From IMG/VR virus record IMGVR_UViG_3300048502_000015, positions 32,001 through 96,000 of that record: DNA of 64,000 nt; one strand, given 5' to 3'. This DNA comes from a virus (Duplodnaviria > Caudoviricetes). Numbering within the stretch: position 1 is the stretch's first letter; the number at the start of each line of letters is the position of its first letter. This document shows, one piece after another, positions 1 to 26,247 of the stretch. Position numbers and translations under genes: made by a program. Below the pieces are notes generated by a model that saw nothing but the letters and a program-made list of their open reading frames with translations, was not told where the DNA came from and did not search any database.

Positions 1-401
1 TAGGTTACTATTGATCCACCAGATTGAGGCCCATCCCATTCGTTTAGGGTTGCGCCTTGAAGAACCCATTCTTCGGGATCAAGTCCTCTTTCTCGAAGCA
101 TTGCTTCGGGATCATCCAAATGCGGATAAGGATTCTCGTAAGCAGTAAGAGTCTGATGGCCAATTACTTCGGCCTCGTCGCCCTTGATTAGAAGTCCACC
201 CTTTTCCTGAGTCGGGATACCCAATCCGTGACGCTTACGAAAACGCTTGATTGATGACTCGGTTGTATCCTTACCATATACCGTATGCAAACTACGAACT
301 ATAGTGGTAGTAAATTCACCTAAATTAACAAGACCTATAATGTAACTTTTATATGGTTCTTCGTCCAGCCAACTACTCTGCTTGTTCTTCTTTGGACTCA
401 T
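1..401 (-). CDS. partial CDS (runs off left edge); N-terminus resembles phage metallophosphoesterase-type proteins
   Basis: Open frame MSPKKNKQSSWLDEEPY...RGLDPEEWVLQGATLNEWDGPQ read by hand; overlaps portal stop; absent from ORF track because truncated. Confidence 0.55.
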   Translation of the reverse strand, partial: MSPKKNKQSSWLDEEPYKSYIIGLVNLGEFTTTIVRSLHTVYGKDTTESSIKRFRKRHGLGIPTQEKGGLLIKGDEAEVIGHQTLTAYENPYPHLDDPEAMLRERGLDPEEWVLQGATLNEWDGPQSGGSIVT

Positions 402-11750: not shown

Positions 11751-11821
11751 TTGCGACAGAGGGAATTGAACCCTCCTCTAGACACCGTATGAAAGTGTAC
11801 GCCCACCACGGGCTTGTCGCA
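11751..11821 (-). tRNA. tRNA-Met(CAT), short D arm
   Basis: TGCGACA/TGTCGCA acceptor; ACACT-TT-CAT-AC-GGTGT; T loop TTCAATT. Confidence 0.75.
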
Positions 11822-11920
11822 TTGGATTTCCCCTACCGCCTATCCCGGTCATAGGGTACTCAAGGTTGTGCTTACAGACTCCCTAAATCCGGGGTGCGGT
11901 CTGTAGATAGGCGTCACAAG

Positions 11921-12334
11921 TTAAACTACGTTTACCCGTCGAGAAGACTTGTACCAATGATAATGCTTAAAATGGCGTCGATTAGCTCGGCCATTTTTGC
12001 CGCAATAAACGCACATTTTGTACTCTCGTGTAACGAGATATGGTTTACGAGGAGGCCAAGGATAGGCCATAACCTCTTCTTCACCAGTCAAATAAGCGTG
12101 TCGCTTATGTCCTTCTCGGGCAGGGCAATACGAGATCTTCTTCTTTTCCTTCTTTCGAGACTTTCCGTTAGAAGGATGATCTAGAATCGGGGGCTGACGA
12201 TCATCTCGTGCTGCCCAGCTATCGGTTCGAACCGTTTTGATAGGGCCTCCTCGAAGGGCGGCTGCTTCTGCGGAACGAACTCTCTTGTTGTCGATTCGTT
12301 TACGAATGTGACGACTTGTAGATTTACGAGCCAT
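11921..12334 (-). CDS. basic hypothetical protein with CxxC
   Basis: 137 aa, Arg/Lys-rich; SD AAGGAG. Confidence 0.6.
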   Translation of the reverse strand: MARKSTSRHIRKRIDNKRVRSAEAAALRGGPIKTVRTDSWAARDDRQPPILDHPSNGKSRKKEKKKISYCPAREGHKRHAYLTGEEEVMAYPWPPRKPYLVTREYKMCVYCGKNGRANRRHFKHYHWYKSSRRVNVV

Positions 12335-12404
12335 GTTTGTTTTCTCCTTGTTAATAGGTTACTTTACAAACATATTCGTTCTCCTTGGTTAGTTGATTAT
12401 AAAG

Positions 12405-12476
12405 AGCGGGTAGAGGGAATTGAACCCTCATCTCAGGTGTGGAAGACCGGCATAATAGCCTTTATACTATACCCGC
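12405..12476 (-). tRNA. tRNA-Gly(TCC)
   Basis: GCGGGTA...CCGGT-CT-TCC-AC-ACCTG...TACCCGC-T. Confidence 0.9.
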
Positions 12477-12508
12477 AAGATACCTTTTATAGTCATGCTC
12501 AGGACTGA

Positions 12509-12582
12509 AGCCCATTTAGGGAATCGAACCCTATCTATTTCGCTTTACAAGAGCGATGCAGCACCATTTCTGCATAATGGGC
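12509..12582 (-). tRNA. tRNA-Thr(TGT)
   Basis: GCCCATT...TCGCT-CT-TGT-AA-AGCGA. Confidence 0.9.
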
Positions 12583-12589
12583 GATACTA

Positions 12590-12910
12590 TTACAGCTTCA
12601 TTATCCGGGGTTCTGTCCCTATTTCTAGGTGACGATCATCTGTCTCAGTTAGCCTATTTCTAGGCTTCCCTGGCGGATTCTTGACGAGTTGCCCGCTGCC
12701 CTCTACCTGCTATGTCCGTAGGTCTTTGCCCTTAGGATTCGCGTCTTGAGGTTGCATCCTCAGTTCCCATTCGAGGTTCAAGCGCCTTAGCTCCCTCCAA
12801 ATGTTACTTATTTACTGAGTTAGTTAAGCTCATAACCGAGTTTCCTCGGCCAGGATGCCCCGAAATTCCTCTACATATACCTTCTATGCAGCGACCGTCT
12901 TTAACTGTAA
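12590..12910 (-). ncRNA. rnpB: RNase P RNA (divergent, reduced S-domain)
   Basis: P1 TTACAGTT/AGCTGTAA; P2 GACGGTC/GATCGTC; CR-I GAGGAATTTCGGGGC pairs with CR-V ACAGAACCCCGGAT (P4); GATGCAA; AGACAGATGATC. Confidence 0.85.
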
Positions 12911-12912
12911 GT

Positions 12913-13122
12913 TTAGGAAATTCTTTGAACAACTACTACTTGAGTATCCCCTTTCATGAAGGTCCGGACTACCTTACTCTTGATATTGACCTGTCCAGGA
13001 TGGGCATGAACGATTGCACCAGGACCATACTTGGGGGCCGGTATAACCACACCCAAGTCTTCGTTGTTCCAATCTCTCGTGTATAGCTCTTCTACAAAAA
13101 GAGCCTTAGTATGTTTGCTCAT
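12913..13122 (-). CDS. small hypothetical protein, leaderless
   Basis: TGATATACT-6nt-ATG upstream. Confidence 0.6.
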   Translation of the reverse strand: MSKHTKALFVEELYTRDWNNEDLGVVIPAPKYGPGAIVHAHPGQVNIKSKVVRTFMKGDTQVVVVQRIS

Positions 13123-13140
13123 ATACATAGTATATCACAA

Positions 13141-13229
13141 ATCCTACAGCAAGATTCAAACTTGCGACACCATTTCGATTCCGGGTCCTACCCGGATGAT
13201 CTGTGCTCTGATCACTGAGCTATGTAGGA
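13141..13229 (-). ncRNA. tRNA-like RNA with extended, anticodon-less arm
   Basis: Normal acceptor, D and T arms; anticodon arm replaced by bulged helix ending TCCGGGT-AGG-ACCCGGA. Confidence 0.7.
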
Positions 13230-13367
13230 TGGCCTAGATAGAAACCCGCCGCTTATCTTCGGTCGGTTACGTAGCGACAAATCGCGGGAGATAAGCCCAA
13301 CGAAAACCTTGCCTCCTGGTACTCCCCGGTCATCATGAATCCGAGGGCCAGTTCCACCGTCTATCTA

Positions 13368-13428
13368 ATAGTGATAGGAGAATCGAACTCCAAATTAAGG
13401 GGTCTTCCTTAATCAACCTATATCACTA
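13368..13428 (-). ncRNA. D-armless mini tRNA-like RNA
   Basis: TAGTGATA/TATCACTA stem; ATTAAGG-6nt-CCTTAAT; GGAG-TTCGATT-CTCC. Confidence 0.6.
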
Positions 13429-13479
13429 GCTTTCTACTGAGTTAATTATCATGTGCTGATTCCTGGCGATGAGCCAGAG

Positions 13480-13551
13480 AGGAGTAGAGCGGTTTCGAGC
13501 CGCCTTCTGGGACATGGCAAGCCCCTGTAATAGCCAGTATACGACTACTCC
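13480..13551 (-). tRNA. tRNA-Gly(GCC), atypical T loop
   Basis: GGGGC-TT-GCC-AT-GTCCC; T loop CTCGAAA. Confidence 0.8.
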
Positions 13552-13632
13552 AAACACGCGGCAAACATATGATCATGGGAACTTCGGGTTTACCGCGTTA
13601 TACCCTAGCCGCACCATATGTTTTATTTTTAG

Positions 13633-13705
13633 TACCCCTGGACGGATTCAAACCGCCGACCTGATCGTTCGAAGCGACCCACTCTATTCACTGAGCTACA
13701 GAGGC
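13633..13705 (-). tRNA. tRNA-Arg(TCG)
   Basis: GGTCG-CT-TCG-AA-CGATC. Confidence 0.9.
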
Positions 13706-13844
13706 AAGAACTACAAATTATCAATCTTCTCTTCAATCCGTCTTTCTACATCGTGATCTCTGTCTTCTTCAACCGAATCTGCCTTTACCTCGACCGTCCA
13801 TCTATTCCATAATGTCTTCATCTACCTTTACCGTCTTGGTAAAG

Positions 13845-14165
13845 CTACTGAAGCACTAAATCTGTTTCATACCAACGATAATCGCTTAGTTGGTTATTGA
13901 AAAATTCTAGCCAATCAGAAGTACCTTTTGCTTCGTCCCATGTTACCAGAAAGTACGGAGGATCAGGTGACACTCTAGGAGTAATATCCTCTTTCTCTTC
14001 AATCAAGGAAGAAATCGTCCCAACAGGATCGTCGCCCTTGAGATAGGCGAGCGCTCCAATTAGATACCAATTGATTTCGTCGCTGGAATCCAATTCAAGG
14101 GCAATATCGTTTGCCACGCCGTTTGAAAGCTTTACTTTATCTCCAATTTTCATTTCATACCTCAT
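13845..14165 (-). CDS. hypothetical protein
   Basis: 106 aa ORF, MKIGDKVKL-type phage N-terminus. Confidence 0.55.
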   Translation of the reverse strand: MRYEMKIGDKVKLSNGVANDIALELDSSDEINWYLIGALAYLKGDDPVGTISSLIEEKEDITPRVSPDPPYFLVTWDEAKGTSDWLEFFNNQLSDYRWYETDLVLQ

Positions 14166-14337
14166 AGACTTGAGTTGTTTTACTTACGTAGTACTTTCCA
14201 TCGGCGGCAAGAATACCGACGAGGGTTCCTAAATGAATGGCAGCTATTTCTAGCTCCATCAGAGGCTTCCTCCGCTTCCATGTTCCTTGAACTGGATTCC
14301 ACTTCCTCATTGGACTTATTTCTATCTTGTAGTACAT
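14155..14337 (-). CDS. hypothetical protein
   Basis: Start moved to MYYK to avoid overlap with tRNA-Lys. Confidence 0.45.
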   Translation of the reverse strand: MYYKIEISPMRKWNPVQGTWKRRKPLMELEIAAIHLGTLVGILAADGKYYVSKTTQVYEV

Positions 14338-14339
14338 AG

Positions 14340-14415
14340 TACCCCGTATGCGGATCGAACGCATCTGATATCTCGATTAAGAGTCGAGTGCCACCACCAT
14401 TGGAGCCAACGAGGT
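14340..14415 (-). tRNA. tRNA-Lys(CTT)
   Basis: CTCGA-CT-CTT-AA-TCGAG. Confidence 0.9.
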
Positions 14416-14480
14416 AAGCGGGCTAATTATCGTCAAGCCCAATGACTATTCGGTTGTCTAATGGCCAACCGACAAACCCA

Positions 14481-14553
14481 TGCGACTGGAGGGATTCAAA
14501 CCCACGACCTTCGGTTTCGTAGACCGACGCTCTTTTCGCTGAGCTACAATCGC
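14481..14553 (-). tRNA. tRNA-Arg(ACG)
   Basis: TCGGT-CT-ACG-AA-ACCGA. Confidence 0.9.
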
Positions 14554-14567
14554 GTTTTGAGTGAGTA

Positions 14568-15236
14568 CTAGCCCTCACTCACGGCTTTGAGCATCTGGAT
14601 GCTATCTTCGATCTCAAAGGAATTGTCTTCCTTTGCAAACTCCCCTAGAGTGAAGTCCCTCAAGAGAGTATATTCGTAGCTGGATTCATCTCCCGCCAAG
14701 ATCAAGTCGTATACTACTGGACGCTGTTCCTTGAACTCGGTTAGCATTTTTTGAGCGAACTTTCGTTCGTCGTTTGTCATAGACGGCGCAATGCTTTTTG
14801 AAGCCAATTCTCCGACCCTTAGATGTAAGTCTCTGTGAGCTTTCAAACAAATTGGGATGGTACACTTGGACCGAGAAGCATATGCCTGATAGTTCTCAAG
14901 CATGAGCATCATCCAACGAGGTACATAGTGATGCCTCGTTATCCTACCTTCGCAAGTTAGTCCATGAATAGAGCAAATTCGGCAAACTGGTTCAATCCCT
15001 GCAAGCCGAATTCTTTCTAGGCGGCGCTCGATGACATGAGCCGGAACCACATTATCATCAGAAGCCAAACGAAGTCGATAAAGAACCTGACGCTGAGAGA
15101 GATCTTCGTCTAGAAGATCGTCCACATCAATGTCTTCGAGATCGGCAAGAAGCTCAAGCTGAGCAACAGTAGCCTTAGCTCGTTGATCGAACCAAATTTG
15201 GCCTGCTGGAGTGTTGAAAGGTCTAGCGCGGCTCAT
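14568..15236 (-). CDS. HNH-like Zn-binding protein
   Basis: CRIC...TRHHYVP...CLKAHRDLH. Confidence 0.6.
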   Translation of the reverse strand: MSRARPFNTPAGQIWFDQRAKATVAQLELLADLEDIDVDDLLDEDLSQRQVLYRLRLASDDNVVPAHVIERRLERIRLAGIEPVCRICSIHGLTCEGRITRHHYVPRWMMLMLENYQAYASRSKCTIPICLKAHRDLHLRVGELASKSIAPSMTNDERKFAQKMLTEFKEQRPVVYDLILAGDESSYEYTLLRDFTLGEFAKEDNSFEIEDSIQMLKAVSEG

Positions 15237-15314
15237 TTATTTTCTCCATCTATTATATCATAGAATTGAAGTCTACCCGATATTTTACCTTAAACTACAT
15301 ATCCCGTGATCAAG

Positions 15315-15349
15315 CGGTCAACGACGGGACTCGAACCCGCATCTTCGGA
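15315..15349 (-). pseudogene. isolated tRNA 3' fragment (T arm + acceptor 3' strand)
   Basis: GCGGG-TTCGAGT-CCCGT-CGTTGACC-G directly after tRNA-Glu; no 5' half. Confidence 0.65.
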
Positions 15350-15350
15350 G

Positions 15351-15424
15351 TACCACCACCGGGATTTGAACCCGAGTTTCCGCCGTGAGAGGGCGGCGTC
15401 CTAAACCAACTAGACGATGGTGGC
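15351..15424 (-). tRNA. tRNA-Glu(CTC)
   Basis: CCGCC-CT-CTC-AC-GGCGG. Confidence 0.92.
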
Positions 15425-15531
15425 TTGGCGGGGGTCCACCCTTTAACAGGTCTACCCCCATAATACAGCAAATATGATGCCTTATGGCCGCTTTAGGCAT
15501 TTAAAGCATCATATTTGCATCACTACAGGAA

Positions 15532-16947
15532 CTACAATGCCGCCCTCTCACGAATGTTGGCAAACGTCTGATGCCGAGTAATCTTTCCATTCTCGAAAAC
15601 AGTTTGTAGTACATCCGGGATTTGTACGTCATACATAGGAATAACGCCGTAACGTTCCGTAGCGTAGTTACCCGCCTGACTAAAGACAAGCTTCAAACGG
15701 CCTGCCTTACTTCTCTTCGAAGTATCGAGAGGAATCTTTGAGACATCATGCCAAATTCCATCTCGCTTCTGTGCGCTGCATTTGAACGCAAATCTTTGCG
15801 TATCACGGTTGACCTTCTGGAGCAAGCCCCCACCCATTCCGAAGACCATGTTTTCGGCTGAGTAGCCAGCAAGCTGGAGTCGTCCAAGGATCTTGTCGAT
15901 GCCGTTAGGATCGATCCCATCGCCCCACAAGACACGAATCTTGGGGTTAAGGACCTTGAATCCCTTAGAATTCGTAGTGGTTCCAAAACCCTTAGCCAGA
16001 GTATCTACAATCCATTCGGTTAGTAGATCTGGCGTAGGATGCTGAACGGTAATCGAATCAGGACGGACTACGAAAACCCCTTCGCGTTCAAGAATCTTAT
16101 CCTTGTACCAGGAGTTGAGATCAAGGCCAGCGACCGTATTGACAAAACGATAGATGTCATAGCTGTCGGCTACCACTGAAAGAATTCCAGTTGGGTATTT
16201 CTCAAGTAGGTCAGCCACGATCATCATTTCCTGCGCTTGTCCTCCTGCCGTCATAACCGAATGCTCAGTAGCAGGAACCGAAAATGCGAGACTTTGAGGG
16301 TCCGCATCGTAGGCTTGCATCGCCAACACCATTGCAGGGAGCGTATCTGTGCCCATGAAGTTGACTAGATGGGCTGCTCCACCGATGGCTGCTGTTTCGT
16401 CGCTTGAAGCTCCGCGATAACCAAAATCATGAAGCATGAACGGAAGACCGTCCCGGTTATCTGCTGTAGCGTCAAGATGGCCAGCAATCATTTCCTTTGT
16501 ATGGCGGCTGAGCGTAGCAACCGTTGATGGATACCAAACATGAGTCAAAAGGGACTCAACAAAGTTGGTAAGCCAAGCGCACTCTGGATCGGTATTTTCA
16601 ACCGTCATAAGCACGTTACCTGTCGGGATTACAGAACCCTCCGGAACCGCCTTGATGCGGATCGGAAGCTTGCCGTCAAGCTTGTTAACAATGTAATTCC
16701 ATCCATCAAAATTGAAGAGATTAGGATTACCAAAGTGAGTCTCGGCAATACCATAAGCCTCCCGGACATCATCCATCGTAACCGGCGTTTCAAGCTTCTC
16801 TAGGATCTTCTGCAATCCGAAAAACACCGTGTAAGGGAACTCTGCTCCCTGACGGCTTTCAAAATATGAGTAAACGCCCTCTGTCCCCTCGGGGTACATT
16901 TGATGGTGCGTCAACTTGTAGCTGTCTGTACTGAGAATTGTATTCAT
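15532..16947 (-). CDS. nadV: nicotinamide phosphoribosyltransferase (Nampt)
   Basis: TDSYK, LHDFGYRG, PATEHS, VVRPDS, NRDTQRFAFK motifs. Confidence 0.95.
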   Translation of the reverse strand: MNTILSTDSYKLTHHQMYPEGTEGVYSYFESRQGAEFPYTVFFGLQKILEKLETPVTMDDVREAYGIAETHFGNPNLFNFDGWNYIVNKLDGKLPIRIKAVPEGSVIPTGNVLMTVENTDPECAWLTNFVESLLTHVWYPSTVATLSRHTKEMIAGHLDATADNRDGLPFMLHDFGYRGASSDETAAIGGAAHLVNFMGTDTLPAMVLAMQAYDADPQSLAFSVPATEHSVMTAGGQAQEMMIVADLLEKYPTGILSVVADSYDIYRFVNTVAGLDLNSWYKDKILEREGVFVVRPDSITVQHPTPDLLTEWIVDTLAKGFGTTTNSKGFKVLNPKIRVLWGDGIDPNGIDKILGRLQLAGYSAENMVFGMGGGLLQKVNRDTQRFAFKCSAQKRDGIWHDVSKIPLDTSKRSKAGRLKLVFSQAGNYATERYGVIPMYDVQIPDVLQTVFENGKITRHQTFANIRERAAL

Positions 16948-16985
16948 AATCTTATCCTTGTATAGATTGTTGAATGTATATTGTA

Positions 16986-17966
16986 CTACACTTGCTGCTT
17001 ATGTGCTCTGCGGGTCACAATGACGTTGATCAAATCCTGGTGATTCGGAACAACGTCCAAATCCCAGTCAAGATCAAACCACTTAACCTCGGCAATGTCA
17101 TCTCCTGGCTTAGGAGTCCCGAACATATGCTTGGCCTCGAAGAGCAGAGTCTTGATAACTCTATCTGGCTCTTTGCGATAGCGCCAATCATCGATTAGGT
17201 AGCTCCCGACATAGACCGGATCAGTAATCTCGATCCCGGCTTCCTCTGAAACCTCTCTGCGGGCATCTGCCTCGTAGCTAGGACTCTTAGGATCGGAGAA
17301 CCCTCCGATCAGTCGGAACTTCTTCTCATTGGCTTTGCGGCCTAGAAGGATCTTGCTTCCGTCCTCGTTGAGGATGGCAACATCGACTGTTGCAAAGCAT
17401 TGAGGAAACTGGCTGAATGCAGCCCAGACAACGCCTGCGCGGAAATCCGGAGTCCCTCGAACGCTTGTGCGAGAAACCTCTTTGCGGATTTCGCTTCCCG
17501 AAACAAAGACCTGAGATTCAAGCTCTTCGCTGGGATGCTTTCCCGAATAATGAGAGATGAATGAGTCGCGTCCTCCATAGAGAAGAACGGTCTGATTCGG
17601 GGTAATCACATCATCGATTTGAGTATCGAGATTGCGGCTCCAAACTTCATCGTCGGGCTGGTCCTTGATGTAAAGGACGTTCACATGAGGGAACTTGGCA
17701 AGGATCATCTGCTTGCGTCCCTCGAAGTCCAAAGGATTCTCTCGGGTGACCATCAAAGGCGACAAGCCAAGAAAGATGATTACTTTTCCATGGCGGTCAC
17801 AAACGGTCTGAATAAGTTCCATATGAGCATCATGTAGCTCGGGAACCTGAAAACGGCCTACGATTACACCGACATCCTGGCTGTTAGCTCTGGCGCGATC
17901 TCTAGATGCACCTTTGCTAAGCTTCAAGTTTCTTTCAAACTCTGTGTATTCTGCTGGATATGTCAT
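16986..17966 (-). CDS. natV: bifunctional NMN adenylyltransferase / Nudix hydrolase
   Basis: VGRFQVPELHDAH (HxxH), SGSEIR, Nudix box GG...ARREVSEEAG. Confidence 0.9.
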   Translation of the reverse strand: MTYPAEYTEFERNLKLSKGASRDRARANSQDVGVIVGRFQVPELHDAHMELIQTVCDRHGKVIIFLGLSPLMVTRENPLDFEGRKQMILAKFPHVNVLYIKDQPDDEVWSRNLDTQIDDVITPNQTVLLYGGRDSFISHYSGKHPSEELESQVFVSGSEIRKEVSRTSVRGTPDFRAGVVWAAFSQFPQCFATVDVAILNEDGSKILLGRKANEKKFRLIGGFSDPKSPSYEADARREVSEEAGIEITDPVYVGSYLIDDWRYRKEPDRVIKTLLFEAKHMFGTPKPGDDIAEVKWFDLDWDLDVVPNHQDLINVIVTRRAHKQQV

Positions 17967-18013
17967 TTTCTTCCTTTCAATTCCATCAATAACGAATTGT
18001 TTGGTTTATAAAG

Positions 18014-18089
18014 TACCAGTAGGGGGAGTCGAACCCAACCTCACTCTTGTTTAAAAGACAAGTGCCCAGTCCACACGGGCGCTACTGGC
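18014..18089 (-). tRNA. tRNA-Lys(TTT)
   Basis: CTTGT-CT-TTT-AA-ACAAG. Confidence 0.88.
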
Positions 18090-18092
18090 AAG

Positions 18093-18176
18093 CTAATGAA
18101 CTCCTGCTGCTACAAGAACGGCTACAACGTAGCCTATCAAGATAAACAACAAAAGCGCAATCAATTTATAGTTCAT
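18093..18176 (-). CDS. 27-aa single-TM peptide, leaderless
   Basis: MNYKLIALLLFILIGYVVAVLVAAGVH*; TGATATAAT-6nt-ATG. Confidence 0.6.
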   Translation of the reverse strand: MNYKLIALLLFILIGYVVAVLVAAGVH

Positions 18177-18200
18177 AACTACATTATATCACAGTTTAAG

Positions 18201-18272
18201 TACGCCCACGAGGATTTGAACCCCGATGTGCTGGGAATAAGCCAGATGTTCTAACCGTTGAACTATGGGCGC
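18201..18272 (-). tRNA. tRNA-Ile(TAT)
   Basis: CTGG-CT-TAT-TC-CCAG; T at position 37. Confidence 0.75.
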
Positions 18273-18277
18273 AAGAG

Positions 18278-18349
18278 GGTGACTGATGGGAAATGACCCC
18301 ATACCAACCGGCTTCACAGGCCAGGACTCTACATTAAGCTACAGCCACC
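18278..18349 (-). tRNA. tRNA-His(GTG)
   Basis: G-1:C73; CTGGC-CT-GTG-AA-GCCGG; atypical T loop GTCATTT. Confidence 0.85.
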
Positions 18350-18496
18350 ATGATTACTACAAACCGCTGCCGAGTCGCCACTGTCCGTTCCTAACTCCTG
18401 CTCTCGGCCAGTATCCCGTTCATCGGATACTCTCATCCACGAGACTTAAATCGTCTACCTATTAAAATGCCTTTACCGTTTATAATTAGTAGAAAG

Positions 18497-18583
18497 TAGC
18501 GGTAGAGAGGATCGAACTCTCAATTCCCTTACGGGACAACGATTTTTAAGACCGTCCTGTATACCTAATTCCAGCATACCGCC
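18497..18583 (-). tRNA. tRNA-Leu(TAA), long variable arm
   Basis: ACGGT-CT-TAA-AA-ATCGT. Confidence 0.9.
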
Positions 18584-18587
18584 AAAT

Positions 18588-19112
18588 ATGACTAAACCAA
18601 GAAAATACAATGATCCTGATCTAATTGCTGCTGTTAAATCATCAACTTCAATTGCACAAGTCTTGAATCAACTGGGACTTAAACCTGCGGGAGGTAACTA
18701 TACCACAATCAAGAATCGAACACAAGAACTTGGCTTAGATACCTCTCATTGGAGGGGTCAAGCTTGGAACAAGGGGTTAAAGGTTCCTGGTTATACCAAA
18801 CGTAATCTACAGGATATCCTAGTCGAAAATAGTCCACATAAGCAAAGTCACGGTTTGAAAATTCGCCTCATTAACGAGGGTTTACTCGAAGAAATTTGTG
18901 ATGAATGTTCAATTACTAACTGGATGAATCGGCCACTATCCTTTCATTTGGAACATATTAACGGTGTTCATAGCGATAACCGTCTTCCCAATCTACGGCT
19001 TCTATGTCCTAACTGTCATTCACAGACGCCTACCTATTGTGGCCGAAATATTGGCAAAGCCGAATCCCTCTGCCATTGGGTAGATGCCCTTGGTGCTAAA
19101 TTTCTCTCTTGA
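18588..19112 (+). CDS. HNH homing endonuclease
   Basis: CDEC...LEHINGVHSDNRLPNLRLLCPNCHSQT; antisense to tRNA operon. Confidence 0.9.
   Translation: MTKPRKYNDPDLIAAVKSSTSIAQVLNQLGLKPAGGNYTTIKNRTQELGLDTSHWRGQAWNKGLKVPGYTKRNLQDILVENSPHKQSHGLKIRLINEGLLEEICDECSITNWMNRPLSFHLEHINGVHSDNRLPNLRLLCPNCHSQTPTYCGRNIGKAESLCHWVDALGAKFLS
19057..19089 (-). pseudogene. 5' half of a short-arm-type tRNA-Leu truncated in the anticodon
   Basis: GGGCATCTACCCAATGGCAGAGGGATTCGGCTT; D loop resembles that of tRNA-Leu(TAG) at 26446. Confidence 0.65.
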
Positions 19113-19302
19113 TCGTCAAGCAGGGACCAGAACTATATTGATCGTAGCTAACCGATCTAGCCTTTACAACATAACGTTTACCGTCGATGTCAAAGGAAAT
19201 CCAAGTTGGCTCGTAGCCACAATTATCAGAAACGCCGACAATCGTTGCGGTCTTTCCTTCGAGTCCTACAAACTCGTTCTTCTTGACTGTTTCAAATTCC
19301 AT
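19096..19302 (-). CDS. small hypothetical protein, leaderless
   Basis: TGATATACT-6nt-ATG. Confidence 0.6.
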   Translation of the reverse strand: MEFETVKKNEFVGLEGKTATIVGVSDNCGYEPTWISFDIDGKRYVVKARSVSYDQYSSGPCLTIKREI

Positions 19303-19326
19303 AACTACAGTATATCATACTTCAGG

Positions 19327-19686
19327 CTAACCAAGGGCCTCTTCGATAACTTTCCAATCTTCGTCTGTTCCGTATGCTATCGGATTATCTTCGGTAAAGA
19401 CTTCGGGAATTGCATTTGGACTCACTATGATATAGAAATCATTGGGATAATCAAGTTGATTGGTCGCCTCTTTTGGCGTTGTAATTCCCTGTTCTACATG
19501 GGCGTTTACTGCATGACGCAATCCGCGTTCCGAAGCCGGAACGACTATGACGGGAGAAAATTGGTGAAGTAGTACTACTCGCTCATCCCGAAAATCTGCG
19601 GCAGTAATTTCTGATGCCTTCAGTAGACCGATTACCTGTTCTCTTTCTTTTTCGGAAAGAGCATATCTCTTTACTATTTCTCCCAT
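19327..19686 (-). CDS. hypothetical protein
   Basis: 119 aa; SD AAAGGA. Confidence 0.6.
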   Translation of the reverse strand: MGEIVKRYALSEKEREQVIGLLKASEITAADFRDERVVLLHQFSPVIVVPASERGLRHAVNAHVEQGITTPKEATNQLDYPNDFYIIVSPNAIPEVFTEDNPIAYGTDEDWKVIEEALG

Positions 19687-19710
19687 ATCTTTCCTTTAGG
19701 TTGTACTTAG

Positions 19711-19784
19711 CTGCGGGGAAGAGAATCGAACTCCTGATGGCTACGGTTCAAAGCCGCAGTTGCGATGCCAGCACACACCCCGCA
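19711..19784 (-). tRNA. tRNA-Gln(TTG)
   Basis: TGCGG-CT-TTG-AA-CCGTA; T1-A72, G73. Confidence 0.85.
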
Positions 19785-19885
19785 ATAAGGCGGGTTCTCA
19801 CCGCACATGCGCCATATCGTAGATGGCCCGTCTATAGACCCTTTAATTCTATAGTCGCCAAGTATCCCCTTGGTGGTCACTTAAG

Positions 19886-19957
19886 CTGCGGAAGTTGGAT
19901 TCGAACCAACATCAGACGGCTTCAGAGGCCGCTATCTTGCCATTAGACCACTCCGCA
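19886..19957 (-). tRNA. tRNA-Gln(CTG)
   Basis: GCGGC-CT-CTG-AA-GCCGT. Confidence 0.92.
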
Positions 19958-20083
19958 AAGAGTTTGGTTGTTGTCGTACAACCATAAACGAGTCATTTCT
20001 CTGGCCTTGCTGCCGCTGCATGGCTGACTACCGGAGCGTTACCTGGGACTTAATACCCTGTTCTGAGGCGGCTAGACGATTTA

Positions 20084-20158
20084 TGGCGGCAACAGGTAAC
20101 GCTCCTGTATCGATTGGCTTATGAAACCAAGCTGGGTCTATCTCCAGTCCATACCGCA
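20084..20158 (-). tRNA. tRNA-Met(CAT), initiator-like 1:72 mismatch
   Basis: T1xC72; TTGGT-TT-CAT-AA-GCCAA; T loop AGCGTTA. Confidence 0.75.
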
Positions 20159-20165
20159 TTAAAGG

Positions 20166-20252
20166 GAACAGGGGAAGGAATCGAACCTTCGTAGATCTGG
20201 ATATGAGCCAAATTGGAGAAAGCCCTTTAGGGCAACCAACACTCTCCCTGCA
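20166..20252 (-). tRNA. tRNA-Met(CAT) with hairpin insertion in D loop
   Basis: TTTGG-CT-CAT-AT-CCAGA; extra GCCCT-AA-AGGGC in D loop; T1xT72, C73. Confidence 0.65.
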
Positions 20253-20264
20253 CGTAAACAAATC

Positions 20265-20340
20265 GAGGAACAACCTTACCCGTTAGGTGAAATCTAATGC
20301 CAGAGACATTAGACTATCGGACTCGAACCGATGTATCCTC
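20265..20340 (-). ncRNA. circularly permuted tRNA-like RNA (YrlA-type T-AS-D order)
   Basis: ATCGG-TTCGAGT-CCGAT, then AGTCTAA-linker-TTAGATT, then ACCT-AACGGGTA-AGGT, closed by GAGGA/TCCTC. Confidence 0.7.
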
Positions 20341-20344
20341 TCAG

Positions 20345-20430
20345 TACTCAAGAAGGGACTCGAACCCTTACGCCGTTTCACGGGCACACGCTTTTGAGGC
20401 GTGCGTGGCTACCAATTACACCACTTGAGC
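20345..20430 (-). tRNA. tRNA-Leu(CAA)
   Basis: CACGC-CT-CAA-AA-GCGTG; long variable arm. Confidence 0.92.
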
Positions 20431-20533
20431 AAAATATATACTGGACCTAGCCCTCGCGCGCTTTGCAGGGTGTTTCCGGATTTGCCATTCCTTCGTTGGA
20501 ATGGACAGGTAAGTAGTATATGTACCACCTTAG

Positions 20534-20607
20534 TACCACCAGAGGGATTTGAACCCTCGATATCTTGCTTGAAAGGCAAGCGAATTAGACCGCTATTCTA
20601 TGATGGC
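20534..20607 (-). tRNA. tRNA-Glu(TTC)
   Basis: CTTGC-CT-TTC-AA-GCAAG. Confidence 0.9.
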
Positions 20608-20790
20608 GTGTGTACGCTCTCTGTGACAATTTGCGCATACAAGATCACATTTGGCTATTTCGGCCAAAACAGACCTTAGAGAACGTCCGTTTGTAATCAA
20701 TTGAGAAATATTATTATCCTTTTGTGAGGGATCTAAATGATGAAAATCGGTGACATAGTAGCGAAATTGCCTGATTCCTCCGCTGGCCAA
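20593..20790 (-). pseudogene. N-terminally truncated HNH endonuclease
   Basis: DFHHLDP...EIAKCDLVCANCHRERT present; upstream CxxC absent; stop codon lies inside tRNA-Glu. Confidence 0.65.
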
Positions 20791-20942
20791 TTCGGAAGTG
20801 GTCCTCGATTTGAATCGTCATAAAAGCTATCCTGAAGGTCCTCTTCAAGTTCAAGAACTCGATCAAGGGCTTCAAGCAGAAGACCAACTATTTCACCGAA
20901 CGAGAACCGTTCTTCGTAATATTCTCTAGTGTGTCGTTCCAT
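20733..20942 (-). CDS. small acidic hypothetical protein, leaderless
   Basis: TGCTATACT-6nt-ATG (MERHTREYY...). Confidence 0.55.
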   Translation of the reverse strand: MERHTREYYEERFSFGEIVGLLLEALDRVLELEEDLQDSFYDDSNRGPLPNWPAEESGNFATMSPIFII

Positions 20943-21049
20943 AACTACAGTATAGCAGAACTTCAAAATTCGTGCAACACCTTAACCACCTGAACGTTGG
21001 CCCAATTCGGCAAAGAACTTAGGGCCAGTAGTCTAGGGCGTTACACAAG

Positions 21050-21123
21050 TGCGAATGGGAGGACTCGAACCTCCGACCACTTCCATATCAGGGAAGCACT
21101 CTAGTCCACTGAGTTACACTCGC
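21050..21123 (-). tRNA. tRNA-Ile(GAT)
   Basis: CTTCC-CT-GAT-AT-GGAAG. Confidence 0.92.
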
Positions 21124-21125
21124 AA

Positions 21126-21191
21126 TCTCCGTAAGAGGACCTGAGCCTCTACCTCTGGCTGCCGCCAGGATGCTTCTTACACCATACGGAA
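21126..21191 (-). ncRNA. compact tRNA-like RNA with tetraloop in place of anticodon loop
   Basis: TTCCGTA/TACGGAG; GTGT-AAGAA-GCAT; CTGGC-GGCA-GCCAG; AGAGG-CTCAGGT-CCTCT. Confidence 0.72.
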
Positions 21192-21192
21192 G

Positions 21193-21264
21193 TGGTCCCA
21201 GAGGGAATCGAACCCTCTACGCCCTCCTCTTCAGGGAGGCGCTCTACCATTGAGCTACAGGACC
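21193..21264 (-). tRNA. tRNA-Phe(GAA)
   Basis: CCTCC-CT-GAA-GA-GGAGG. Confidence 0.93.
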
Positions 21265-21630
21265 ATATACCTGCCGATCTCTCAGAAGGTATCTACAACA
21301 GGCGGACATGTTGAGCCGCCGAAAAGCTTGCAATCCACTTTTGTAGAATGGATTCGTTACTTTTCGGTGCCGGTTTCATCGTCCAACCGCTTGGTTAAAA
21401 CTACTATTTTCTTTGGCTTTTGCATACTATTTATACTACCTATTATCGGGTTATTACACTTGTACAAAAGTACAAGATTTAGTGGCTTATTCTATCCTTA
21501 CACCACTATCCAGTGATAACGTCGGTGTCACGACCTGATAGATGGCAATTAGATAGATCGGAGTGTGCGGTATGACCAGAGGAGTCCACACACCCCTGAT
21601 ACCGAGTGGATTTTACACAAGAACGATCTA

Positions 21631-21714
21631 CGGAATACCAGAGAATCGAACTCTGCCGGGACATAGCCCCTTATCTCGTTTCCAGCGAGACTCCTAACCA
21701 ATCGGTTATATTCC
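21631..21714 (-). tRNA. tRNA-Ser(GGA)
   Basis: TCTCG-CT-GGA-AA-CGAGA; long variable arm; overlaps pth2 stop. Confidence 0.8.
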
Positions 21715-22122
21715 AGAGTCCTCCGACAAGTGCCACCAGCGGCGTTCCTTGGTTTTTGGCGGCAAATCCTTGTACGTCCTGAAGTCTCCAAAAGTAGCCT
21801 GGACATGAAGATCGTCCTTATCCACAATCTCGACTCCGAGAGCAGTATAAGAAAACGGCTGAATCTCAGTTCGGCCTTCATCGATGATGATTGCCGTTTT
21901 GAATCCGCGTTCCTTAATGTACCGCTCAATGACCAGGAGTTGATCCGCATCCTCAGCCAGCATAACCAGCTTTGTGTAGTGCTTTCCGTAATTCCAGTTC
22001 TCGATCATCTTCCGATCAGAAATTTGGAATGCTTCGACGGCAGCATGAGCGACCTGCGCAGCAGATTTGCCAACCGACATACCTAAACCTCGGTTCAGGA
22101 ACAAATACATTGCAGGTCGCAC
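21706..22122 (-). CDS. pth2: peptidyl-tRNA hydrolase, Pth2 type
   Basis: MSVGKSAAQVAHAA, TKLV, IDEGRTEIQPFSYTALG. Confidence 0.9.
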   Translation of the reverse strand: MRPAMYLFLNRGLGMSVGKSAAQVAHAAVEAFQISDRKMIENWNYGKHYTKLVMLAEDADQLLVIERYIKERGFKTAIIIDEGRTEIQPFSYTALGVEIVDKDDLHVQATFGDFRTYKDLPPKTKERRWWHLSEDSGI

Positions 22123-22130
22123 ATTCTCTC

Positions 22131-22316
22131 CTAGCTGTCAATTTTTGTATAAACACCAAACACATCGAATAGCTTATCTACCGCCCATGCAGCAAGTGCC
22201 CATACTGTCCAAACTTTCCAAGCCGCGCCTAAGACAAGGGCCGGAGCAAGTAGAGAGTACAAAGCAAATGCTAGAAATAGTACTGCGAGAAACAAAATCA
22301 GTTTCTTGAGAATCAT
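22131..22316 (-). CDS. small two-TM membrane protein
   Basis: Two hydrophobic segments. Confidence 0.6.
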   Translation of the reverse strand: MILKKLILFLAVLFLAFALYSLLAPALVLGAAWKVWTVWALAAWAVDKLFDVFGVYTKIDS

Positions 22317-22384
22317 ATGAATCTTTCTGATGGTGCTACATTTATTCGTCAAATTAGGGAACGTACAGGTTTCTGTACGTCCAG

Positions 22385-22470
22385 CGGAAGGGAGGAGGGT
22401 CGAACTCCTAAGGCTTGCGCTCGTCTGTTTTCAAGACAGATGCCGTCGCCAACTGTCGGCTAGCCCTTCC
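22385..22470 (-). tRNA. tRNA-Ser(TGA)
   Basis: TCTGT-CT-TGA-AA-ACAGA. Confidence 0.88.
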
Positions 22471-22512
22471 AAACGGATCGTAACCCCATTTCAGGTTCGC
22501 TACGATCCTAAG

Positions 22513-22588
22513 AGATCAGAGTGAGATTCGAACTCACGATATTAAATGCTTTGCAGGCATTCCCGTTCAACCACTCCGGCATCTGATC
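22513..22588 (-). tRNA. tRNA-Cys(GCA)
   Basis: AATGC-CT-GCA-AA-GCATT; T73. Confidence 0.9.
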
Positions 22589-22862
22589 TTGGTCCCAGCC
22601 GACGCCTTCCGACGCCGACCGAGATGTGAAATCCGGATTGCCTACCGAAAACTTTGGACCAATATTGGTTTATAGTCAATATTACCGCAGTACCCATTGT
22701 TAGCCGCTAAGCACAACTGCCATCCGCTGCTAACGGACGCCACTAACTGTCTCAGGAACTTTCCCGTTGATGCGTTAGCTTGACGTTGCCAATGTTGCCT
22801 TATCCCCTATTGGTGCAGGGATTATTCAGCCATTTCTAGGTGCAACCGTCGCTACACCATAG

Positions 22863-22933
22863 CTCCTGAACAGGGACTCGAACCCCGATTAAATGGTTAA
22901 CAGCCATTCGTCCTGCCATTGAACGATTCAGGA
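22863..22933 (-). tRNA. tRNA-Asn(GTT)
   Basis: AATGG-CT-GTT-AA-CCATT. Confidence 0.93.
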
Positions 22934-22970
22934 ATGTTACTACAAGATCCTATGCGAGAACCATAGGATA

Positions 22971-23056
22971 CGGAATGCCTGGGATTTGAACCCAGAACGG
23001 GTATTAGACCGCACTTCCTTAGCAGGGAAGCTCCTCGTGCCATTCGGACACATTCC
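22971..23056 (-). tRNA. tRNA-Ser(GCT)
   Basis: CTTCC-CT-GCT-AA-GGAAG. Confidence 0.88.
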
Positions 23057-23117
23057 AAAGTAAATACTACTTCGGTTACGGGAATCCTCGCGGCCCACAC
23101 GATTTTGAAGGTAGTAA

Positions 23118-23189
23118 TGTCCCTGATGGGAGTCGAACCCATTCTCGCGGTTTAGGAAACCGCTGCCTTGTCCGTTTGGCTTCAAGGAC
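23118..23189 (-). tRNA. tRNA-Arg(CCT)
   Basis: GCGGT-TT-CCT-AA-ACCGC. Confidence 0.9.
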
Positions 23190-23283
23190 CGAGAGAAAGA
23201 GTCCCGTAGGACCCTTTCTGATTTGCTAGCACAATTAAAGTTCCCGCACCCGCCCGAGAGCTACAAACTCACTTGGGAACTAT

Positions 23284-23353
23284 TGATAAGTCCAGAATCG
23301 AACTGGAATCTCTGCCGTTTAGCAGCGAGGTTTCCAAAACCTCTTCATTATCT
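23284..23353 (-). ncRNA. tRNA-like RNA with long D stem and 4-nt 'anticodon' loop
   Basis: GAGGTTT-TGG-AAACCTC; CTGCT-AAAC-GGCAG; TCCAG-TTCGATT-CTGGA; GATAA/TTATC. Confidence 0.65.
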
Positions 23354-23384
23354 CCCCAGTACCCATGCATTGGCGTTGGAGTTA

Positions 23385-23783
23385 TGGATCATGTCGGAAT
23401 CGAACCGACGTGTTCGGTACGCCTATTAGGTTACTTCTATCAGCTTTGGGGCAGGCTTTAACCCGCCTCCACCAAAGAGTTTATACGATACTCATAAACG
23501 AAAAGCCCCGCTACCAATCTAGCTTTTATTCAGGTCTTTCTAGACGTGCTAGACAACGCTAGAAGACCGACTCTTGTTCTGGTTCCAAGTCAGAGTTGAC
23601 TCATGCAATGGCTAAACCAATGCTAGGAGTGAATCTCCCGCTGTTACCTGATCGCACTTGGCGAATAGGCTTGCCGGAATGTTCACGAGTGAATCGTTGT
23701 CATGTATTGACTGTTTGGTTTATGGTGACCAACCGCTGAATAACACTAACCGCTTCTTACCGAGTCGAATGCCTGTATGACCC
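23385..23783 (-). ncRNA. ssrA: tmRNA; predicted tag (A)DNDSLVNIPASLFAKCDQVTAGDSLLALV*
   Basis: GGGTCAT/ATGATCC-A with G3.U70; ATTCGAC; T arm GTCGG-TTCGATT-CCGAC; tag ORF 23701-23612. Confidence 0.9.
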
Positions 23784-23877
23784 GAGATTAGATGGACTAG
23801 GATTTCTGGGTTCAGTTCCCCACGTTACCTAGACTGGTGCGGTTGTTCCCGCTGTCTCTATTTGGACTACCCATCTA

Positions 23878-23949
23878 TATCCAGTACTGGATTCGAACCA
23901 GTGATCTCTTGCGTGTCGAGCAAGCGTAATCCCACTTTACCAACCGGAT
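23878..23949 (-). tRNA. tRNA-Val(GAC)
   Basis: CTTGC-TC-GAC-AC-GCAAG. Confidence 0.88.
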
Positions 23950-24004
23950 GAATTTCTCTGTCGCGGCGTTACCCACAGAGCCTCATCGCATCTGGATGAG
24001 AAAG

Positions 24005-24077
24005 TACTCGATATCCGTTCTGCCCGGATTACCTTTTGCGTGTAAAACAAACGCTCTCCTAATTGAGCTAATCGAGC
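24005..24077 (-). tRNA. tRNA-Val(TAC), atypical T loop
   Basis: TTTGT-TT-TAC-AC-GCAAA; T loop GGCAGAA. Confidence 0.8.
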
Positions 24078-24457
24078 AAGAATCCAAAGAGAGTCTGCGT
24101 TCACATCAAATAACTTTCAGAGCTACTGTCTTCCTGCCGGTCAAGTAGGTGGTTATTTGGCTGACTGTCACTCGGGACCTAGATCTTTGAGTCCTGTTTC
24201 TTTGGGTAAGAGTCCCCTTAAGGTATTACGTTGCCCCGCCTCTACCGGGGTCGCAAGGGGATAAGATTACGAGCGGTCACCAGCCATTGGAGGAATCGAA
24301 CCTCTCTACTCTAGGTGTACCATTATAAACAAGAATCGAACTTGACACCGTTAGGTTAAACTGTAGTCTAGATGCCTACACGGGTTCCCCGTTTACCGTA
24401 GTTGCTTGCGGTCTTAGCGCTAAGGAACCAAATTTGGTACATGGACCTACAGTTAAG

Positions 24458-24529
24458 CGACCCCATGGGGACTCGAACCCCAACTTCAACTTCGACAGAG
24501 TAGTGTGATGACCTTTTCACTATAGGGCC
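24458..24529 (-). tRNA. tRNA-Asp(GTC), intact
   Basis: CTACT-CT-GTC-GA-AGTTG; G73. Confidence 0.85.
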
Positions 24530-24581
24530 ATTAAATGAACCCCTACCGTCGCATAATGTATGAAACGATAAGGATGCAATA

Positions 24582-25253
24582 ATGAAATTACAACAACGAA
24601 CAGAAGCCCGTCATTTACGACAAGATTATGGTTGGTCTATTAAACAAATAGCCCAAAACCTCAATGTATCTCCCAGTTCAGTTAGTACCTGGACTAGAGA
24701 CATTGTTCTTACACCCGAACAACAGAAAAATTTGGATCTAAAAAATCCAGCATTGAATCCCACCGGAACAAACACAAATACCAAATTCTTTCGAGATAAA
24801 CGAAAGATATCACAAAACATCGGAGCCTCCCAAATCGGGAACCCCGAGTTTGCTGCTGGTTGTTGTCTGTATTGGGGAGAAGGATCTAAAAATCGTAATT
24901 CTGTTAGTATTACTAATACAGATACGAATCTTTTAGTCTTCTTTTTGCAATTTATACGAAATCACTTCGTCATTGACGATAATGAGATTCACGTAACCGT
25001 TTCCTATCATGTCGATAATGGATTCGATAAAGATACCGTCGAAGGATTTTGGTTACAAGCATTAAATCTACCCAAATCCTGTTTAAGAAAACCCATTCTA
25101 GATAGTCGATCTCGTTCGGCCACTAAAGCCCCAAATAAAAAGTATCCCTTTGGGTGTTGTCGAATTGAAATAGGTCGCACAGATATTATCCAAGCCATTT
25201 ATGGTGGTATTCAAGCACTTGGGGGATTTACAAAAACCGAATGGTTAGATTGA
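24582..25253 (+). CDS. HTH + LAGLIDADG-like homing endonuclease
   Basis: N-terminal HTH (SIKQIAQNLNVSPSSVSTW); LYWGEGSK...ITNTD; AT-rich; antisense to tRNA operon. Confidence 0.8.
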   Translation: MKLQQRTEARHLRQDYGWSIKQIAQNLNVSPSSVSTWTRDIVLTPEQQKNLDLKNPALNPTGTNTNTKFFRDKRKISQNIGASQIGNPEFAAGCCLYWGEGSKNRNSVSITNTDTNLLVFFLQFIRNHFVIDDNEIHVTVSYHVDNGFDKDTVEGFWLQALNLPKSCLRKPILDSRSRSATKAPNKKYPFGCCRIEIGRTDIIQAIYGGIQALGGFTKTEWLD

Positions 25254-25288
25254 CAGGGTAGCGCTTTAAGCCACTAAGCTACAACTCC
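25251..25288 (-). pseudogene. 5' half of tRNA-Asp(GTC) truncated after position 37
   Basis: GGAGTTGTAGCTTAGTGGCTTAAAGCGCTACCCTGTCA. Confidence 0.85.
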
Positions 25289-25359
25289 AGAAGCCACGAT
25301 GCCGACTGCATACGGCGGTTTGCGCAAACTCCCTCATGGCTTGAGGAGCGACCGTTAAG

Positions 25360-25430
25360 CAGGCCATATCCGAATCGAACAGATGTTAAGGGGTTTGGAA
25401 TCCCTTGTGCTACCACTACACCAATGGCCC
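25360..25430 (-). tRNA. tRNA-Trp(CCA)
   Basis: AGGGA-TT-CCA-AA-CCCCT. Confidence 0.88.
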
Positions 25431-25438
25431 TTATTTTA

Positions 25439-25624
25439 CTACCGAATTACAAAACGTCCCTGTCCAATGTGGCGGCGAGAACACTCCCTCTTCAAACCTC
25501 TAAGAAGTTTGTTCTTTTCGTCACTCATAGAGCCAAATCCGGATGAATAAAGCGCTGAAGTTAGAGAAAGAATTTCCTCGTCCGAGAAGACCGACCAACG
25601 AATCTTATTTGGAGTTTTGTTCAT
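25439..25624 (-). CDS. small hypothetical protein, leaderless
   Basis: TGATATACT-6nt-ATG. Confidence 0.6.
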   Translation of the reverse strand: MNKTPNKIRWSVFSDEEILSLTSALYSSGFGSMSDEKNKLLRGLKRECSRRHIGQGRFVIR

Positions 25625-25729
25625 AACTATAGTATATCACATAAATAGGCTCGCAAGGGGAATCAAAACCTATCGGAGCGCTCCCCAGCGCGGTTTAGAT
25701 AAGGATTTATATGATCGTTTGTCCGCCTA

Positions 25730-25800
25730 AGCCACAAGATGGTGCTGATCCATCGTCCCTGGGGTACGAATCCAGAATTCTTCCGTTGAACTATTGTGGC
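25730..25800 (-). tRNA. tRNA-Thr(CGT), atypical T loop
   Basis: CTGGA-TT-CGT-AC-CCCAG; T loop ATCAGCA. Confidence 0.78.
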
Positions 25801-25949
25801 GCTACTAATGAGATAGGAGTAAGCTACTCCATAGGTTCGGTTAATCCGTTGATCATGCCAATCTAATCAGCATAAGAGGCATCGATACTCTTCGTTAGCC
25901 AATGCTGTTAGCAACCCTTAGGATGGTCCCTTTCGGGAAAACTATCTCA

Positions 25950-26021
25950 AGCCGCCACCGAGAATCGAACTCGGGATGCATCCGTACCAAGGATGTGTGA
26001 TACCACTTACACCATGGCGGC
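25950..26021 (-). tRNA. tRNA-Thr(GGT)
   Basis: CATCC-TT-GGT-AC-GGATG. Confidence 0.92.
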
Positions 26022-26126
26022 GAATTGGGAATCCAATAAATTGGCAGTTAGCATCAAATGCTACTGGTTTATATTCCCAAGATCTCTACAAGAAACTGTT
26101 GCCCAGCTTCTTGCAAGTTTGAATTA

Positions 26127-26201
26127 TCGGGACGGCTGGATTCGAACCAGCGCTCACTCACTTCCAAGGCGAGGATGTTGACCAGGCTACACTACGCCCC
26201 G
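26127..26201 (-). tRNA. tRNA-Pro(TGG)
   Basis: CTCGC-CT-TGG-AA-GTGAG; C1-G72. Confidence 0.9.
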
Positions 26202-26247
26202 TTGGAGCAGAGAAGACCTTTGACAGCCTACTCTGCAAGTTACTTCA

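Follow-up and report, generated by a model that had tools for sequence, protein, structure and literature searches.

A divergent RNase P RNA gene with a remodelled S-domain predicted in the tRNA array of a phage genome

A 160,424-bp IMG/VR virus genome (CheckV completeness 100%) carries what is, judged from its sequence, a divergent, phage-encoded RNase P RNA gene. The gene lies within a 64,000-nucleotide stretch, bases 32001-96000 of the record, which is referred to here as the window. In textbooks, RNase P RNA figures as a universal ribozyme of cells. A preliminary description, made from the letters of the window, had placed a divergent phage copy inside its tRNA operon, at coordinates that prove to run exactly from the 5' to the 3' strand of P1 (Table 1). 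A covariance-model (CM) match, intact conserved regions and covariation all support this identification. The gene is likely to supply a functional catalytic RNA subunit of RNase P that borrows the host RnpA protein and matures the phage's own tRNAs and tmRNA.

The best-matching family is bacterial class A (RF00010), and the match spans the full length of the model (positions 1-367). With E-value reporting, cmscan of positions 12400-13200 places it at 12586-12910 (-) with 39.2 bits and an E-value of 1.2e-10, a score far under the gathering cut-off of 100 bits; the E. coli rnpB control reaches 318.6 bits. Four other RNase P clan families match the same stretch, all scoring below RF00010. Class B (RF00011) loses the clan competition, and its P5.1 and P10.1 elements are not evident. 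At gathering thresholds, cmscan finds no RNase P family in the window, where Rfam's curated thresholds return 28 tRNAs and nothing else. The Infernal comparison with Rfam RNase P models that had been suggested at the outset is negative by those thresholds and positive by E-value. Routine phage annotation misses such genes because their scores fall below the Rfam cut-off.

Could the match be a chance likeness of an intergenic spacer? The sub-threshold score speaks for this, and nothing further does. The idea is effectively refuted by an E-value of 5.5e-12 for the single RF00010 match in the whole 160-kb genome, by a full-length match with all three conserved regions of the C-domain in order, and by the existence of covarying homologues. 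A model-free minimum free energy (MFE) fold recovers P1, P3, P4 and P5 and the P18 and P19 hairpins (z = -2.96). No ORF of note overlaps the gene, and neither a promoter nor a terminator is recognisable at the locus.

Table 1. Features of the predicted RNase P RNA and its surroundings in the window. For RNA position p, the window coordinate is 12911-p.
Feature	Window position	RNA position	Strand	Basis or remark
RNase P RNA gene	12590-12910		-	321 nt, P1 5' strand to P1 3' strand; RF00010
P1 5' strand UUACAGUU	12903-12910	1-8	-	pairs with 12590-12597 AGCUGUAA (RNA 314-321); CM, MFE
P2 5' strand GACGGUC	12893-12899	12-18	-	pairs with 12631-12637 GAUCGUC (RNA 274-280)
P3 hairpin	12871-12891	20-40	-	CM alignment; covariation
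CR-I and P4 5' strand GAGGAAUUUCGGGG, bulged U48	12858-12871	40-53	-	pairs with 12603-12610
P5 5' strand CAUCC	12853-12857	54-58	-	pairs with 12755-12759 GGAUG (RNA 152-156); J5/15 CAA next
Remodelled S-domain, 93 nt versus about 160	12760-12852	59-151	-	CM deletes model ~61-217; manual comparison with G001, L078, L074, L087
P8 hairpin, GAAA loop	12835-12850	61-76	-	directly after P5
Closing helix UCAGU/ACUGA	12814-12818 with 12760-12764	93-97 with 147-151	-	manual comparison
Module GG-N-GG GAG (variable hairpin) GYUWGRA CC-N-C GA	12771-12798	113-140	-	subfamily-specific; common to 5 RNAs
P15 (CCUC/GAGG), L15 internal loop, P16/17-like arm	12700-12751		-	manual mapping on E. coli alignment
Extra hairpin, P15.1-like, between P15 and P18	12673-12696	215-238	-	in every subfamily member
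P18, GAAA tetraloop	12651-12666	245-260	-	CM-aligned to P18
J18/2 / CR-IV UGAGACAGAU	12638-12647		-	contains universal AG-NNNN-AU; CM alignment
P19-like hairpin CCUA-GAAA-UAGG	12618-12629	282-293	-	between P2 3' and P4 3'
CR-V and P4 3' strand ACAGAACCCCGGAUA	12602-12616	295-309	-	CM; E. coli mapping; pair test
Array of 34-35 tRNA genes and tmRNA, same strand	11751-27688		-	ARAGORN (34 tRNAs in window); presumed substrates
tRNA-Thr(UGU)	12509-12582		-	7 nt downstream of ribozyme P1
tmRNA, tag AGDSLLALV*	23385-23783		-	ARAGORN, inside tRNA array
Five tRNAs with deviant T loops (Gly-GCC CTCGAAA; Arg-TCG and Arg-ACG TTTGAAT; His GTCATTT; Thr-CGT ATCAGCA)	13479-13551, 13632-13705, 14481-14553, 18277-18348, 25730-25800		-	

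Nucleotides were mapped by aligning fetched E. coli rnpB and the phage RNA to the same RF00010 model. The mapping, the CM alignment and covariation bear out the earlier claim that the catalytic core is present: P1-P5, the P4 pseudoknot with its bulged U, CR-I, CR-IV and CR-V are all found. P4, which had been described as covaried, pairs A45-U308, U46-A307 and U47.G306, leaves U48 bulged, and continues with C49-G305, G50-C304 and G51-53 with C303-301. Compared with the E. coli helix, two pairs have reversed orientation (A67-U359 to U46-A307; C71-G356 to G50-C304) and one has become a wobble (G68-C358 to U47.G306), while the bulged U and the remaining pairs are unchanged. J5/15 GCAA is likewise conserved.

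The P15-L15 loop with its CCA-binding GGU is present by manual analysis. CCUC at RNA 160-163 faces GAGG at 208-211, with the P16/17-like arm placed by hand at RNA 169-202. GGUA at 12704-12707 (RNA 204-207) abuts the P15 3' strand on its 5' side, at the very place that GGGUA occupies in E. coli; this assignment was made manually, across a strand that the CM leaves unaligned. P18 with a GNRA loop and the P8 hairpin are also found, and the L18-P8 and L8-P4 contacts are predicted from them. The RNA holds three GAAA tetraloops, in P8, P18 and the P19-like hairpin. An identical 12-nt sequence, CCUAGAAAUAGG, occurs in the P18 (12653-12664) and P19-like (12618-12629) hairpins, which suggests a local duplication.

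Covariation was assessed in a subfamily of five distinct RNAs, comprising the window copy and G001, L078 (G018), L074 and L087, each from a phage or metagenome. The formal pair test used a MAFFT alignment and was limited to P2, P3 and P4 because MAFFT matches the manual pairing there alone. Across these three helices 100% of cells are paired and both partners have changed at 8 of 20 pairs, in a sample of five sequences of which two are near-identical; none of 500 shuffles reaches the observed values, and slid controls are 20-49% paired. P4 is 100% paired in all five sequences, and both sides have changed at five of the seven P2 pairs. In P1, all seven compared pairs covary within the subfamily. 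P15 is paired in 5/5 members and covaries at 2/4 pairs, and the P18 loop is GNRA in 4/5. In the part that was aligned by hand, which biases the percentage paired, all 54 pairs in 12 helices are standard in every sequence after re-indexing of two L087 hairpins, and compensatory change is seen at 29 of them; the placement of P1, P2, P3, P4, P5 and P15 is set by invariant motifs next to them.

Selection can be read from two sister phages, G001 and G018 (L078). Their RNAs are 96.3% identical, while the surrounding 2.8 kb is 83.5% identical. Three core-helix substitutions between them leave the pairing intact, and the L18 loop, GCAA in one and GCGA in the other, conforms to GNRA in both. This sister clade indicates that the subfamily is under purifying selection. 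For the window's own copy, constraint is suggested by the intact core and by the compensatory differences from other members.

In the S-domain, the CM deletes model positions ~61-217, which correspond to P7-P14 including CR-II and CR-III, and the 93 nt that take their place contain neither CR-II (ACAGARA) nor CR-III (GGUGAAA). The full S-domain, P7-P14, is therefore lacking. J5/7 is 2 nt long (UG), so the P6 strand is absent, and the L17 loop GCAAAGA has no complement. The preliminary description was right on both counts, having called the S-domain short and divergent and having seen no P6.

Within the subfamily, a common layout runs from P5 to the P8 hairpin, then to a closing helix and the module. 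G001 has the P8 loop GCUAA, which agrees with GCUAAC in the P8 of G005; in G017 and the window the loop reads GAAA. The outer helix of the module is recovered by RNAalifold in an alignment anchored on the two sequence motifs, with a second pair that is A-U, U-A or C-G; with an unanchored MAFFT alignment the 5' strand was displaced, and the RNAalifold structure carried no information. The module has probably taken the place of the P10-P12/CR-II/CR-III platform, the usual docking site of the tRNA elbow. A bolder proposal, which we hold to be rather doubtful, is that it forms a new substrate- or protein-docking device through which the viral RNA captures host RnpA and favours maturation of the phage's own polycistronic tRNA/tmRNA transcripts, or works protein-free. 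If true, this would amount to viral hijacking of RNase P and to a previously undescribed, phage-confined architectural class of bacterial-type RNase P RNA.

The same architecture is found in the lowest RF00010 scorers among viral records (G001 and G014, 28.4 bits; G018, 27.1; G017, 54.0). A probe combining CR-I and the module retrieves solely the low-scoring subfamily records from IMG/VR and one contig from metagenomes, L087, which has 24 tRNAs and an RNase P RNA that begins right after tRNA-Gly. Past the L087 RNA by 2-3 bases lies a tRNA-like element (L087:6160-6236 (+)) that ARAGORN does not call, with acceptor-like ends CUGGGGG/CCCCCAG and a T arm GUUCGAGUC. As with tRNA-Thr in the window, the L087 ribozyme may form the leader of this tRNA-like element.

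These findings also bear on whether the RNA is a decaying, functionless relic of a captured host rnpB. The low CM score and the loss of most of the S-domain would fit such a history. Nevertheless, we consider it highly unlikely, given that compensatory changes maintain pairing in all core helices and that the sister-clade RNA is far more conserved than its flanks. The architecture is also shared by phages whose RNAs span 48-62% G+C and which have no terminase detectably in common with the window phage. Moreover, the CR-I and module pattern has no match in 185,579 bacterial and archaeal species (one genome each). The RNA does not appear to be a recent capture, because no cellular genome in that set shows its architecture.

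RNase P RNAs are found in other viruses as well. Degenerate CR-I-to-CR-V patterns at set distances returned 37 IMG/VR loci, and scoring of whole records identified an RF00010 match in at least 27 viral records, of which 21 exceed the gathering score (102-265 bits). Among them are the complete genomes G005 (168 kb), G025 (170 kb) and G027 (94 kb), which have terminal repeats. The initial statement that such RNAs are normally encoded by cells thus needs qualifying, and predicted RNase P RNA genes are recurrent in large phages. In G005 and in G003, a 463-kb phage with 69 tRNAs, the gene lies within the tRNA array. Two further records, L080 (G026, 71 kb) and L063 (G016, 101 kb), have intermediate RF00010 scores of 64 and 73 bits. 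L080 combines the window's L15 5' side (AAGACG) and its 3' side (...GGUAGRGGGCAG) with another S-domain, a hint that the two domains have evolved as a mosaic. L071/L073 had been considered as a split RNase P RNA and was rejected, as RF00010 finds an ordinary 348-nt copy there (124 bits).

Exact core-strand seeds (GAGGAATTTCGGGGC and GACAGAACCCCGGATAA) gave chance matches alone in IMG/VR and no RNase P. One of these led to an unrelated viral contig on which a D12-methyl RNA (RF02950, 92 bits; L033:5468-5531 (-)) adjoins a truncated tRNA. Neither the window RNA region nor the G005 copy has an RNase P match by blastn among 50,697 GenBank phage records. No relatives were found in IMG/VR through a flanking 137-aa ORF or the putative major head protein, nor in GenBank phages by tblastn with the latter. 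By terminase, the nearest cultured relatives are Bxz1, Rhodococcus E3 and Finch, and Gordonia Stormageddon, at about 32% amino acid identity. Bxz1-type mycobacteriophages and the Rhodococcus and Gordonia myoviruses also carry about 35 tRNAs and a tmRNA. The RNA is not a trait of the Bxz1/E3/Finch/Stormageddon lineage, because none of these four genomes has an RF00010 match. Finally, the open-access literature searched, including the rnpB-annotation papers P finder and Bcheck, yielded no mention of a phage or viral RNase P RNA.

The genomic context of the window copy is a large tRNA array on the same strand (Table 1), in which the RNase P RNA is in effect the 5' leader of tRNA-Thr(UGU). Seven of the ARAGORN tRNAs fall below the Rfam tRNA cut-off. 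The tmRNA reaches the gathering score of no Rfam tmRNA family; it is predicted to be a divergent phage form and is presumably another target of RNase P. CCA is not encoded by any of the phage's tRNA genes. Upstream of the window, at G000:C1:21993-22379 (-) (L088), there is a PolyA_pol/CCA-adding-type domain (PF01743, 107.6 bits), in a frame reported as 1135 aa that is possibly a fusion protein. The tRNA region also includes an NAD+ salvage pair at 15532-17966 (-), formed by a NAMPT (PF04095/PF18127; phrog_448, E 1e-150) and an NMN adenylyltransferase-like/NUDIX protein.

Has the S-domain been retuned to unusual substrates in this array? The preliminary description had proposed tuning to the phage's non-canonical T loops and tRNA-like RNAs, a switch in specificity that would fit the deviant T loops of five of the 34 tRNAs and the loss of CR-II and CR-III, which dock the T loop. 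The other 29 have the canonical TTCRANY, and phages with the same module are canonical as well (L074, 16/16; L087, 21/24). Conversely, in G005, with an RNase P RNA above the Rfam cut-off (191 bits), 2/10 T loops are odd. Tuning to T loops is not supported, because the remodelled S-domain and odd T loops show no association, and we regard a specificity switch of this kind as very unlikely.

A second feature of the context is the absence of a protein partner. The earlier remark that no rnpA is recognisable in the window extends to the entire 160-kb genome, where a search for RnpA (PF00825) gives no match at E<=1; controls were positive in ten bacterial genomes. RnpA is likewise absent from the five other rnpB-carrying phages tested, all of which have 24-69 tRNAs. 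An RNA without a phage rnpA must compete for the host protein, and its S-domain is heavily altered, so it might be asked whether it acts as a dead decoy, a mimic that captures host RnpA or pre-tRNAs and thereby shuts down or redirects host tRNA maturation. We find this improbable: the P4 bulged U, ACAGAA, AG-NNNN-AU, the J5/15 A's and the L15 GGU are all conserved, a pure protein sponge would not need all of these catalytic and substrate-positioning blocks, and the association with tRNA-rich phages fits a processing role.

The reading that we favour remains that of a functional RNase P RNA working with host RnpA. It is supported by homology in sequence and structure, by covariation, by the purifying selection seen among sister phages, by the absence of rnpA and by the gene context, and from these we infer transcription, catalysis, the use of host RnpA and a role for the module. 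The RNA would probably be transcribed together with the minus-strand tRNA array, its 3' end probably being freed as RNase P processes the 5' end of tRNA-Thr, which lies 7 nt further on. It would then fold into a complete type-A-like catalytic domain, with P1-P5, P15/L15 with GGU, P18 and the P15.1-like and P19-like hairpins. Assembly with host RnpA is the most likely next step, because the phage encodes no RnpA. Bacterial RNase P is well known to be reconstituted from RNA and protein subunits of different origin. The holoenzyme would trim the 5' leaders off the 34 phage tRNA precursors and the tmRNA, providing extra processing capacity during infection. P8 and the GNRA-capped L18 would preserve the L8-P4 and L18-P8 contacts, which PMC8457005 gives as the main interdomain contacts of type A RNAs, and the phage-specific module would stand in for the platform on which the tRNA elbow docks.

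Viral copies of RNase P RNA would extend the set of translation genes of large phages, which includes tRNAs, tmRNA and CCA-adding enzyme, and would show that phages invest in tRNA 5' maturation besides tRNA supply. Fast evolution and the shedding of parts make such copies a natural series of deletions and replacements in the specificity domain. The subfamily described here, in which P8 and L18 are kept and the T-loop-docking core is swapped for a small conserved module, could reveal the minimal substrate-recognition needs of bacterial RNase P. This also raises the question of how an RNA subunit without a cognate protein uses or competes for host RnpA.

Among known RNase P RNAs, the closest is class A, represented by E. 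coli M1 RNA (rnpB, RF00010). Shared features include P1-P5, CR-I, CR-IV and CR-V, the P4 bulged U and J5/15 GCAA, as well as the P15-L15 loop with GGU(A), P8 and P18 with its GNRA loop. However, the phage RNA is virus-encoded without rnpA, is shorter (321 versus 377 nt) and scores 39 rather than 318.6 bits. It has no P6, P9, P13, P14 or recognisable CR-II and CR-III; it has two added hairpins, one between P15 and P18 and one that is P19-like, and has a phage-specific module as the core of its S-domain. Compared with class B (RF00011), the phage RNA has hairpins at the P15.1 and P19 positions of established type B anatomy. Nevertheless, its P15 is a type-A-style internal-loop helix, P5.1 and P10.1 are missing, and RF00011 scores lower than class A in the clan competition.

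Loss of S-domain elements has precedents in archaea. According to PMC7191817, which cites Lai et al. 2010 (PMC3012483), the minimal archaeal RNAs of type T (Pyrobaculum/Thermoproteaceae) and type M keep the C-domain and have lost nearly all (T) or parts of the S-domain, including CR-II and CR-III. Those RNAs belong to archaeal cells and function with several protein partners, whereas the phage RNA is bacterial-type and viral. It also differs from type T in retaining a 93-nt structured S-domain with P8 and in having bacterial class A as its best family, and it does not belong to that type. Organelle rnpB genes, as in plastids and the Paulinella chromatophore, offer another parallel, being located in small genomes, sometimes reduced, and dependent on proteins encoded elsewhere (PMC4264200). 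In contrast to the phage gene, they are non-viral, were inherited vertically from a cyanobacterial ancestor and have a canonical S-domain.

Among phage ribozymes, the nearest comparison is with theta (HDV-like) ribozymes, which adjoin phage tRNAs and help to mature the phage's own tRNAs (PMC10879173). Both are phage-encoded ribozymes embedded in tRNA clusters. However, theta ribozymes are small, self-cleaving and act in cis at specific tRNAs, while RNase P acts in trans. What is new relative to these published kinds is the predicted combination of a class A RNase P RNA that is virus-encoded, has no encoded protein partner and carries a phage-specific S-domain.
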